Shown one piece after another: positions 3,965 through 6,145 of a DNA stretch of 64,000 bases; the first letter of the stretch is position 1, and each line of letters begins with the position of its first letter. The stretch lies in assembly GCF_003018235.1 (NCBI RefSeq), contig NZ_CP027437.1, one strand, 5' to 3'. Under the pieces are notes generated by a model. That model was not told the origin of the DNA. It ran no database searches and saw only the letters and a list, made by a program, of their open reading frames with translations. This stretch comes from Escherichia coli. Its GTDB lineage: Bacteria; Pseudomonadota; Gammaproteobacteria; Enterobacterales; Enterobacteriaceae. The position numbers and the translations under genes were made by a program.

Positions 3965-4423
3965 TTATTTTAAGCACTGCGTCCTGATGTATTCCTGCAG
4001 GTAGTTAACCTGCGCGGTTATCTTGTCGATTCCACTTCGGAGACGGTAATAATTAAGTTCAGCATCTGCTGTAAGTCCTGGGCTTTCTCCATCGCCCATG
4101 CTGCTGGCTCCGGTCGTTGACTTTGCACAGGTGGCGGCGACTTGCAGGCGCTTACGACCAGCGGCAACATCAGCGCGCAGAGTTTCATTTTCAGCTCTCG
4201 CATCGGCTAACTCCTTTGTGTATTTTGCATCAAGTGCAGCAACATCACGCTGACGCTGCTGCATGTCAGTAATGGTGGCGTCAGCCAGCTTCAGTTCTCT
4301 GACTTTTTTATCGCGCTGCGCTTTGTAAGTGATGGCATTATCGCGGTAATGGTCTGTTGCCAGCCACAGCGCACCGCAGGCCACCAGCAGGACAATAATC
4401 AACACATACAGAACACGGTTCAT
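3965..4423 (-). CDS. Rz-type i-spanin
   Basis: N-terminal TM segment then coiled-coil region; contains embedded Rz1 in another frame. Confidence 0.75.
4018..4203 (-). CDS. Rz1-type o-spanin lipoprotein (embedded in Rz)
   Basis: lipobox LVVSAC followed by proline-rich segment; entirely inside the Rz gene in a different frame; second ATG at 4188. Confidence 0.65.
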
Positions 4424-4424
4424 A

Positions 4425-4523
4425 TCACCACCAGCGTATCTGACCAATAAAATAACCAGAGGCCATAATCACAAACACCAGCCAGATAAGGATGAACTTC
4501 CAGGTGGATAATTTTTCAGCCAT
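4425..4523 (-). CDS. small hydrophobic peptide (32 aa) between endolysin and Rz
   Basis: ATG at 4523 with GGGAGA RBS; single TM-like segment. Confidence 0.3.
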
Positions 4524-4721
4524 CACTCGTATCTCCCGAATCAGTTTGCTAAAATCAAACACACTTTCTCCTTTGACTTTTCCGGAGTCTGGAAATACAA
4601 GAACCCCGCTTGCGGCCAACAAACGGGGTTTTACTTTTATTCACTTACGTTTTGCCAGTTCGCAGGATTTTGTGTTTTCCGCTCGCGTTGGCCAACGTCA
4701 TTTTTCAGCAAAATATTCTGC

Positions 4722-5255
4722 TTATCTGTCGATACCCCAGCACGCCAGCGCACTCTCCTGGTCACGCCGGGATACCTGACCGTAGCAGTTATTTGAGCGG
4801 ATACGGCAGTCTCTGCCACCGTCCTTGATCCACCAGCGAATCGCCTCGCAGGCTCCCTTGCGATCACCGGCATTAATCCGTCTGTAAAACGTCGACGGAA
4901 AACACTTACCGGGACCAATGTTGTACGGGCAGAATGACGCAATGCCCGCCTTCTGCGGTTCGGTCAGCGGCACTTTGATGTTTTTCTCCACCCATGCCAG
5001 CGCCTTATCCCGTTCGATGGCATTAACCTGGTCGCATTCTTCCTCCGACAGCTTCATGCCAGGAACAACAGGCTTACCATCCACCAGAATGGCACCACGG
5101 CAGATGGTCCAGATACCAGTACCATCACGGTATGCCGTGGTGTGGTTACCTTCTTTTTCATCCAGAAACTGGTCAAGGATTTCAGGCGCAGACGCCCCTG
5201 CGGCAATCAGCGCCAGAACGGCAGCTGACAGACCGTATCTGATTTTTGCGTTCAT
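4722..5255 (-). CDS. SAR endolysin (T4-lysozyme fold, RrrQ-like)
   Basis: N-terminal signal-anchor-release segment LSAAVLALIAAGASA; lysozyme motifs; near-identical in my recollection to Qin-prophage lysozyme. Confidence 0.9.
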   Translation of the reverse strand: MNAKIRYGLSAAVLALIAAGASAPEILDQFLDEKEGNHTTAYRDGTGIWTICRGAILVDGKPVVPGMKLSEEECDQVNAIERDKALAWVEKNIKVPLTEPQKAGIASFCPYNIGPGKCFPSTFYRRINAGDRKGACEAIRWWIKDGGRDCRIRSNNCYGQVSRRDQESALACWGIDR

Positions 5256-5297
5256 GGATATTTATCAGGATTTACCGGCCACAGATAACATGCCAAC

Positions 5298-5926
5298 TCA
5301 TATACGCCCTTTGAGATAAGTCAGGCCCGGCTGGATCCAGTCATCAGGCGCTTTCTTAAAGGGTGGCGTATTGAAATCACAAAGAAGAGCCTCCCGCACC
5401 GCAGCATCCCTGTCTGCACCACTGGCAAGTGCTTCAATCTCTGCCGCCACCTGCAGATACCCCATGCAACGGCCAATGCGTTTCATAACCCTGGTGTTTT
5501 CGTCTTTCAGGCATCCAATAGCGAGATCAATAATTTTCAGGCAATGATGATTGCGATGCCGGACAGGTTTCCCGTTCTCATAAACGACGAACTCACCTTC
5601 TTCACAGGAAACCCTGAAAGGCCGACGGGGTTCCTGGGCTTTATCCGGTGCAGACGCAATAAAATAGCGTTTATTGCCTTCCTCTCCGGCACTTTTAATC
5701 GTAATGGAGTACTTTTCTGACAATGTGGTCGGTGATAGCTTTTCCTGCAAAAAATTCGCAAAGGTCCTGCGAGCAACTTTGATGCAACCATCATAAAACG
5801 CCGCCTCCTGTTCATCGCGGCGTTTTTTTCATCTTCAGAAGTCACCAACACCGACAGTTTTTTATTCAGTTCGGCAATTTCATTTTCCAGGCGACTGAAG
5901 CACTGACTCATTTCTTCATGGTGCAT
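5298..5926 (-). pseudogene. hypothetical protein with apparent frame change at an A7 tract (about 5823-5829)
   Basis: ORF 5537..5926 is protein-like only up to the A7 run; ORF 5298..5750 frame is open upstream to 5828 and protein-like downstream. Confidence 0.4.
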
Positions 5927-5929
5927 TAT

Positions 5930-6145
5930 TTACTCTCCCCGTGCTGCCTTGCGACGGTCCTCTCTGATTTTAAAATACAGATTCGTCAGGTATGTCAGCA
6001 GACCAAACAGCAGACTCCCCAGCACGCCTATCGCCGCCCACTGGGACGGGGAGACCCTGTCCAGCAACTGCAGTAACCAGTACCCCGTTCCCGCCGCTGA
6101 CGTGGTGTATGACACCCCTGTTGTGATTTTTTCCATCTGGTACAT
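5930..6145 (-). CDS. class II holin (phage 21 S-like pinholin) with dual start
   Basis: M-Y-Q-M dual-start (6145 and 6136); ...[41 protein letters not shown] matches S21-type pinholin. Confidence 0.85.

Follow-up and report, generated by a model that had tools for sequence, protein, structure and literature searches.

A 64,000-nucleotide stretch of Escherichia coli DNA (contig NZ_CP027437.1 of RefSeq assembly GCF_003018235.1; hereafter the window) carries at positions 3965-6145 a group of prophage lysis genes, all on the minus strand. They encode S, a class II holin of the phage 21 family and predicted pinholin (71 amino acids (aa), 5930..6145); R, a GH24 lysozyme with an N-terminal segment of the signal-anchor-release (SAR) type, as in RrrQ and the R protein of phage 933W (177 aa, 4722..5255); the i-spanin Rz (152 aa, 3965..4423); and the o-spanin lipoprotein Rz1 (61 aa, 4018..4203). 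A first-pass annotation had placed these genes between the same coordinates, and closer analysis bore it out, since all four open reading frames (ORFs) are full length and have strong profile matches. Their Pfam scores lie far above the curated cut-offs, the PHROG lysis categories concur, and the E-values are far beyond chance. The term lysis module, used in the same annotation, needs qualification: the four lysis genes are intact, but they do not form a simple S-R-Rz/Rz1 block. The co-oriented order is S, a frameshifted gene of 629 nucleotides (nt), R, a spacer with a hairpin, a small gene here called orf45, and Rz with Rz1 inside it, so that an interval of about 300 nt, holding the terminator-like hairpin and the conserved 45-aa membrane-protein gene, separates R from Rz. 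The first-pass annotation named only the four lysis genes and none of these additional elements. We consider this region very probably the late-operon lysis cassette of a lambdoid E. coli prophage of the Shiga toxin (Stx) phage type that lacks stx, with a predicted pinholin and SAR-endolysin route to lysis.

Upstream of S, the genes for a NanS-p-like esterase, a DUF1378 protein and a DUF826 protein follow one another as in the late region of Stx phages; downstream of Rz comes a gene of the Rha family, and stx is absent. Over 2.35 kb, the DNA agrees at 100% identity with that of a prophage in E. coli O158:H23 strain CFIAFB20140388 (NZ_CP076709.1); parts of this stretch recur in 4029 of the 5426 complete genomes of E. 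coli and in 517 phage records, the latter mostly from Stx-converting phages. On the identical DNA, RefSeq lists a ‘class II holin family protein’, a frameshifted hypothetical protein, a ‘lysozyme’ and a ‘lysis protein’, and leaves Rz1 and orf45 without annotation.

Holin, endolysin and spanins

The holin matches the Pfam family PF04971 (‘Bacteriophage P21 holin S’) with an E-value of 1.9e-33 and a score of 114.6 bits against a cut-off of 26. Alignment with S21, the check proposed in the first-pass annotation, gave 77.5% identity (55/71) without gaps over all 71 residues; identity with the S protein of 933W is 95.8%. The layout is that of the P21 holin S family, with a short N-terminus, a weakly hydrophobic first transmembrane domain (TMD1), a strongly hydrophobic second one (TMD2) and a charged C-terminus. 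In particular, Gly, Ala, Ser and Thr make up 55% of TMD1, whose mean Kyte-Doolittle hydropathy (KD) is 0.65 (55% and 0.52 in S21), the mean KD of TMD2 is 1.48 (1.50 in S21), and the TMD2 residues G40, S44, G48, T51, T54 and N55 occupy invariant or nearly invariant columns of the family alignment. Judging from the identity with S21 and from the exported endolysin partner, S would form heptameric pinholes of about 2 nm that depolarise the membrane and do not release a cytoplasmic endolysin.

The S protein begins with MYQMEK and has Met at codons 1 and 4, the second ATG lying at 6134-6136. A Shine-Dalgarno (SD)-like GGGAG (6154..6158, minus strand) is situated 8 nt upstream of the first ATG and a GGGG run 11 nt upstream of the second, and both Met residues are invariant across the S-family alignment. 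The two starts noted in the first-pass annotation are thus present, but the accompanying statement that M-Y-Q-M is typical of antiholin/holin pairs does not hold, as the Tyr-Gln extension contains neither Lys nor Arg. The antiholin character of S21-71 is attributed to an extra basic residue, Lys2 of MKSM, that hinders the exit of TMD1 (PMC9636201, PMC13056207). The Met-Tyr-Gln extension of the window protein has a net side-chain charge of 0, as against +1 in S21; with Tyr-Gln at positions 2 and 3, the Met1 and Met4 products have equal net N-terminal charge. Because the extension carries no basic residue, these products are probably not a charge-based antiholin/holin pair. Among 84 representative family members with both Met residues, Lys or Arg fills position 2 or 3 in 47 (MYRM, MKSM, MLRM, MMKM, MHRM, MKFM); the other 37, which make up the Stx-phage clade, have MYQM (29), MDQM (3), MNQM (3) or MFQM (2). 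A search of a literature library on the dual start of this uncharged, MYQM-type clade found no paper addressing it.

The dual start was also inspected for an RNA structure similar to the lambda sdi, and the fold energy did not differ from that of shuffled sequences in both the S region (z=-0.03) and phage 21 (z=+0.18). An in-frame GTG at 6173-6175, considered as a cationic upstream start that would lengthen S by 10 residues, was rejected: it has no SD sequence, it stands directly after a hairpin, and the upstream in-frame sequence is not conserved in homologues. Between the DUF826 gene and S, a terminator-like inverted repeat, AGGCCAC...GTGGCCT followed by TTTTGTT (6185-6210, minus strand), escaped the terminator scan because its loop exceeds 8 nt.

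The endolysin R matches PF00959 (E=8e-25) and retains the catalytic triad E-8-D-5-T as E35, D44 and T50. Its N-terminus, MNAKIR with the basic residues K4 and R6, is followed by 21 residues, YGLSAAVLALIAAGASAPEIL, of which 52% are Gly, Ala, Ser or Thr and for which the mean KD is 1.53. This agrees with the N-terminus described for SAR endolysins, namely one to three basic residues and then a TMD that has no charges, is weakly hydrophobic and is rich in Gly, Ala and Ser (PMC9239132). R is 94.4% identical to its 933W counterpart, with residues 6-45, and hence the whole SAR segment, identical; the 933W protein has been handled experimentally as a SAR endolysin, its release being enhanced by the releasin of phage Mu (Young laboratory, PMC9239132). 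The earlier assignment of a signal-anchor-release segment is upheld by both features, the small-residue-rich, weakly hydrophobic N-terminus and its identity with the 933W segment. By analogy with 933W R, the enzyme may be tethered to the membrane uncleaved and stay inactive until depolarisation.

A comparison of R with R21 and RrrQ had likewise been proposed at the outset. R21 is homologous to R, but at only 34% identity, with the match to PDB entry 3HDE beginning at residue 12, and a close homologue of R is named ‘rrrQ’ in RefSeq; the PDB matches of R include R21 (3HDE, 3HDF) and RrrD. The cysteines of R are located at positions 52, 74, 109, 118, 136, 150, 157 and 172, and none falls within residues 1-30. 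The lack of Cys in the SAR segment excludes disulfide isomerisation of the P1 Lyz type, and we infer that control of the R21 type is the likelier model.

The spanin genes were identified by matches of Rz to PF03245 (‘Bacteriophage Rz lysis protein’, E=2.3e-41) and of Rz1 to PF06085 (‘Lipoprotein Rz1 precursor’, E=9.1e-20) and phrog_3198 (E=5.2e-30). Rz is 55.7% identical to the phage 21 protein and 64.9% to that of 933W; for Rz1, the corresponding values are 50% and 62%. The N-terminal TMD of Rz is strongly hydrophobic (mean KD 2.84). In Rz1, the lipobox V-S-A-C with Cys20 fits the pattern [LVI][ASTVI][GAS]C, and the Cys is followed at +2 by Lys, which under the Lol rule predicts sorting to the outer membrane. 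As stated in the first-pass annotation, Rz1 has a lipobox and lies entirely inside Rz in another frame; the lipobox is canonical and the frame offset is +1. A separate AAGGAG precedes the Rz1 ATG by 7 nt, and the gene extends from 0.48 to 0.88 of the length of Rz, the typical place for embedded o-spanins (PMC6139136). Rz retains Cys99 and Cys150 as periplasmic cysteines available for homotypic disulfides. The mature Rz1 has no Cys equivalent to C29 of lambda Rz1; lambda spanin function is retained with either Rz C152 or Rz1 C29 (PMC6139136), so the missing Cys is not a defect.

Intervening genes and the stretch downstream of R

The gene between S and R (5298..5926, minus strand) is a frameshifted pseudogene of a 209-aa YdfR-associated family, recognised by phrog_1085, by allele alignment and by the PGAP call ‘frameshifted’ on the identical DNA. 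Two overlapping ORFs in different frames, 5537..5926 and 5298..5750, match phrog_1085, a family of unknown function, at consecutive profile positions. Alignment with an Stx2a-phage allele revealed the loss of one nucleotide in a poly-A run, which has seven A at 5823-5829 where intact alleles (GAA-AAA-AAA-CGC) need eight, and uninterrupted 209-aa proteins at 97-98% identity exist. We considered a programmed -1 frameshift at A_AAA_AAC and rejected it, as close alleles (95-98%) encode uninterrupted proteins of 208-209 aa and the gene is annotated without interruption in all of the 110 other E. coli genomes; the hairpin at this site begins with a spacing of 0 nt, which was also counted against programmed frameshifting. 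Far likelier is either a private mutation from A8 to A7 or a sequencing error in the homopolymer; the gene is either an inactivated accessory gene or the product of such an error. Directly after the A-run, inside the gene, a GC-rich hairpin is followed by TTTTAT.

The family of this gene is confined to Escherichia and Shigella and is present in 111 of 5426 E. coli genomes. It occurs both as a stand-alone protein of 209-213 aa and as the C-terminal module of the 287-333-aa YdfR/DUF1327 proteins that fill the S-R slot of other prophages. The gene itself is outside DUF1327 (PF07041), since neither fragment has a Pfam match and the homology is limited to the non-DUF1327 C-terminal module. Searches for its function gave no match in Pfam, NCBIfam or PADLOC and only PDB sequence matches with E-values of at least 0.13, and an AlphaFold2 model from a 27-sequence alignment was too poor for use, with a predicted local distance difference test score (pLDDT) of 46 and a predicted template-modelling score (pTM) of 0.22.

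Downstream of R, a conserved non-coding stretch (4602..4721, minus strand) ends in a terminator-like hairpin at 4602-4630, for which the terminator scan reported a 12-bp stem and a weak T tract. The stretch folds with z=-2.94, and 1 of 200 shuffled sequences was equally stable. Conservation covers roughly the first 95 nt beyond the stop codon of R and is seen in 933W, in other Stx phages and in Salmonella phage SPN3UB; within the hairpin, the outer stem is conserved and the inner stem and loop differ between lineages. An Rfam search at E<=1 over window positions 1-14000 returned no match in the cassette, this stretch included. The stretch could represent an RNA of the 3' untranslated region, a terminator module or else a boundary of recombination. 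In viral contigs L103, L109, L021 and L122, the 25 nt with which it begins, AGCAGAATATTTTGCTGAAAAATGA, also come after the stop codon of an unrelated 60-aa lipoprotein-like gene.

The second additional gene, orf45 (4425..4562, minus strand), is unannotated and encodes a 45-aa single-pass membrane protein. It starts with GTG, has an AAGGAG 5 nt upstream, and its TGA stop is 1 nt before the ATG of Rz. Apart from a match to phrog_6632 (E=1.8e-29), the product has none in Pfam, PADLOC or NCBIfam. A basic-leaning N-terminus of 22 residues, one TMD (mean KD 2.35) and a tail of 5 residues make up the protein, which the positive-inside rule predicts to be tail-anchored with the N-terminus in the cytoplasm. 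Homologues form 35 clusters from Escherichia (E. coli, E. albertii, E. fergusonii) and Salmonella, and the ratio of nonsynonymous to synonymous substitution rates (dN/dS) of 0.04-0.34 indicates purifying selection and thus a real gene. It is found in H-19B and in many Stx1a, Stx2a and Stx2c phages, is unannotated in most records, including that of H-19B (97.8% identity), and occupies the same slot in Salmonella phage SPN3UB despite an unrelated holin. Salmonella phage SEN34 and a Pseudomonas phage also have homologues, placed there among the tail genes. The orf45 of the Gifsy-1 isrK-orf45-anrP locus shares only the name, and the window has no Rfam match to IsrK; the Gifsy-1 gene has an AUG start and an overlap with anrP, and its conservation is at the nucleotide and not at the amino-acid level (PMC4825925).

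We surveyed the slot before Rz in 239 viral-contig loci, counting it as filled by any small, strongly hydrophobic ORF that ends at most 15 nt before Rz. In this sample, which is biased to E. coli and whose members are not phylogenetically independent, the slot is filled in 46 of 52 RrrQ-type cassettes and in 0 of 39 R21-type cassettes, the latter regardless of the holin N-terminus. Three PHROGs of unknown function that are unrelated to one another, 6632, 4906 and 4493, account for these ORFs. A literature search for an ORF between R and Rz found nothing relevant. In 933W, the slot holds an unannotated 44-aa hydrophobic ORF of phrog_4906 (7436-7570 in contig L008, corresponding to 27435-27569 of the record). 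Other lambdoid cassettes, among them those of L084, L104 and L103, have different small hydrophobic ORFs 1-7 nt before Rz, some ending in ‘...AIRWW’ (phrog_4493). In two loci with an M15-peptidase-type endolysin (L103 1188-1485, L109 640-937), a 37-aa TMD ORF ending in ‘...VRWW’ is followed after 1 nt by a 60-aa lipobox protein (phrog_7528, unknown function), an arrangement reminiscent of an i-spanin/o-spanin pair, though much smaller.

This pattern can be read in two ways: the small ORF is linked in function to the RrrQ-type endolysin or to Rz, or it is simply linked to the spacer. It is doubtful that orf45 and the two unrelated slot families are an unrecognised component of RrrQ-type cassettes that modulates SAR release, pinholin triggering or the spanins. 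The gene fits a plain moron linked to the R-Rz spacer, its homologues among tail genes point the same way, and MYQM holins combined with R21-type endolysins have no slot ORF. The more specific idea that the small ORF substitutes for a charge-based antiholin was rejected, since it tracks the endolysin type and is missing beside all ten such holins. Our best guess is that orf45 is a small inner-membrane modulator or a moron that also provides translational coupling into Rz. If a role in lysis were true, it would be of consequence for a clade in which the pinholin no longer has the cationic dual-start antiholin. Since toxin release in Stx phages depends on when lysis occurs, a hidden timing factor, if real, would have some medical relevance.

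Competence of the module and competing explanations

With hole size, SAR release, timing and expression modelled on phage 21, 933W and lambda, lysis would proceed as follows. After induction, Q-antiterminated transcription from the late promoter would read through the cassette. S would accumulate in the inner membrane with two TMDs, the weakly hydrophobic TMD1 would exit the bilayer, and TMD2 would oligomerise into many nanometre-scale pinholes, collapsing the proton-motive force at a programmed time. Meanwhile R, exported by Sec, would be held inactive through its Gly/Ala/Ser-rich N-terminal segment; depolarisation would free it to refold and cut the murein glycan strands. Finally, Rz in the inner membrane and Rz1, an outer-membrane lipoprotein, would form a complex that spans the periplasm and disrupts the outer membrane, held as covalent homodimers joined through the Rz cysteines.

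In the late operon upstream of this cassette, a group II intron occupies 9609-13347 on the minus strand (Rfam domains D1-D4 at 13062-13347, domain V/VI at 9609-9681). An IS21-like element with istA-like (10201..11013) and istB-like (11220..12002) genes on the opposite strand divides the reverse-transcriptase ORF of the intron into two parts (12012..12896 and 9705..10148). Further upstream, on the minus strand, are a match to the STnc100 small RNA family (134 bits, 13426-13637), genes for tRNA-Lys and tRNA-Met (14262-14416) and a Q-like antiterminator ORF of 250 aa with CxxC motifs (14666-15418); the prophage presumably has its late promoter and leader in this region, 13426-15418. On the opposite strand, at roughly the position of stx in Stx phages, lies an iraM-like anti-adapter gene (9232-9555, plus strand). 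The window is 99.65% identical to NZ_CP076709.1 over 763-9609 and differs from it at 9609-15437, where that genome has a DNA methyltransferase gene and tRNA-Ile/Arg/Arg genes; the window must therefore stem from another, though related, prophage or strain.

Nothing speaks against the identity of the four lysis genes, but several observations weigh against a working cassette of the proposed type. The late operon upstream carries the group II intron broken by the IS21-like element. R has no recognisable SD sequence and begins about 280 nt beyond the point at which the frameshifted gene now terminates early, which may weaken any translational coupling, and the terminator-like hairpin separates R from orf45 and Rz. 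R shares only 34% of its residues with R21, the structurally characterised SAR endolysin, and its N-terminal segment contains AGA|SA, in principle a signal-peptidase site; the mature Rz1 lacks the Cys noted above. One alternative is that the cassette is an inert remnant, with intact-looking genes in a defective prophage, the module being not expressed or no longer lytic. The frameshift between S and R and another frameshifted gene nearby (YlcI/YnfO) would agree with this, as would the interrupted intron between the Q-like gene and S, the terminator-like hairpins inside the cassette and the lack of a clear SD sequence for R. Nevertheless, S, R, Rz and Rz1 are full-length members of their families that keep every conserved residue checked, catalytic and topological features included, S and R are nearly identical to those of 933W, and orf45 is intact. 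The same sequence upstream of R and the same hairpin are found in inducible Stx phages. Moreover, Q-modified RNA polymerase in lambda reads through terminators and normally ignores them, for which reason we consider the lysis module probably competent and a remnant unlikely. This question was judged on the genes within the window; the structural genes of the prophage lie outside it.

Other alternatives concern the mode of lysis. That S is a canonical large-hole holin has nothing specific in its favour and is extremely improbable in view of its close identity with the prototype pinholin S21, the equal length and like character of both TMDs, the pairing with an exported endolysin, and the TCDB-based assignment of near-identical S proteins of Stx phages and H-19B as pinholins (PMC10462455). 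A cleavable Sec signal peptide, which would set R free in the periplasm ahead of holin triggering and imply some other means of control, is suggested by the n-h-c layout of the segment with its A-x-A-like site and has a precedent in T4 RI, whose supposed SAR domain is reported to be a cleavable signal (PMC8385771). We regard this as very unlikely for R: the same segment serves 933W R, used as a SAR endolysin (PMC9239132), the partner is a pinholin-family holin unable to release a cytoplasmic enzyme, the phmmer alignment with full-length R21 (3HDE) reaches into the hydrophobic segment, and Pro at +3/+4 together with the high content of small residues fits SAR domains. A further alternative is a genuine antiholin, the 71-aa Met1 product restraining the 68-aa Met4 product as in phage 21. 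Conservation of both Met codons even in the uncharged clade suggests selection for two starts, SD-like sequences stand at plausible spacing from both, and three added residues including a bulky Tyr could still slow the exit of TMD1. On the other hand, what makes S21-71 and lambda S107 antiholins is held to be an added basic residue (PMC9636201, PMC13056207), the two S products do not differ in charge, and related alleles even have Asp (MDQM). We regard an antiholin role of the Met1 product as rather unlikely.

Comparison with known lysis systems

The combination of a pinholin, a SAR endolysin and embedded spanins had been called a known architecture in the first-pass annotation, and it is indeed published (PMC8136144, PMC10462455). 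About 99% of the Stx phages are predicted to carry a SAR endolysin together with a pinholin, and the embedded Rz1 is overlooked by automatic annotation (Pinto et al., PMC8136144); the S proteins of Stx2a phages have been assigned to the P21 holin family as pinholins, with DUF826 and DUF1378 genes upstream (PMC10462455). The cassette is thus ordinary: it is of the standard Stx-phage type, with a layout catalogued across hundreds of Stx phages, and as such matters little. Its practical value is in annotation, as Rz1 and orf45 are unannotated and the S-R gene is a pseudogene. Only two features are mildly new, the dual start without charge throughout a clade and the small membrane ORF that recurs before Rz without annotation. 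Both could interest lysis specialists: two starts are retained throughout the Stx-type pinholin clade after loss of the basic residue thought to make the antiholin, and nearly all RrrQ-type cassettes have the small gene before Rz, with putative translational coupling.

Among the phages compared, 933W (Stx2) has an S of the same family with the MYQM N-terminus, the same R and embedded Rz/Rz1 with a +1 offset, and downstream of stx its NanS-p-like esterase gene, small DUF genes and S follow in the same order. In 933W, however, S and R are adjacent (4-nt gap) and the R-Rz gap holds ant and a different 44-aa membrane ORF, whereas in the window the frameshifted 209-aa gene separates S from R, orf45 precedes Rz, Rha follows it and stx is missing. 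H-19B (Stx1) shares the same orf45 at 97.8% identity. Phage 21, represented by the annotated genome OL657228, resembles the window in the length of S, its two Met codons and TMD layout, in the fold family, catalytic triad and SAR-type N-terminus of R, and in the embedded spanins. It differs in that S21 starts with MKSM (Lys2) and not MYQM, R21 has 4 cysteines against 8 in R, its Rz1 has an extra Cys that the window Rz1 lacks, and its lysis genes overlap or abut where the window has two spacers with extra genes.

The order in the Qin prophage of E. coli K-12 we take to be essQ-ydfR-rrrQ-rzpQ/rzoQ. The window resembles cassettes of this type in the close R homologue named ‘rrrQ’ by RefSeq and in the S-R slot, which a YdfR/DUF1327 gene fills in many E. 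coli prophages; the window gene differs in lacking DUF1327, in matching only the C-terminal module of long YdfR proteins and in being frameshifted. Similarly, the spanins share with lambda Rz/Rz1 the embedded +1 arrangement, the canonical lipobox, the N-terminal TMD of Rz and the Rz cysteines near positions 99 and 150, but the lipidated Cys is the only one in mature Rz1 of the window, and covalent dimerisation would rest on Rz alone. Finally, the releasin gp25 of phage Mu (DUF2730) offers an analogy to orf45, as both are small membrane-anchored proteins encoded beside SAR endolysin and spanin genes. The Mu protein has 99 aa, an N-out/C-in topology and an acidic cytoplasmic domain of 73 aa (PMC9239132), whereas orf45 encodes 45 aa with the opposite predicted topology, N-in; it matches neither DUF2730 nor any other Pfam family and shows no sequence relationship to gp25, which places it outside the releasins.

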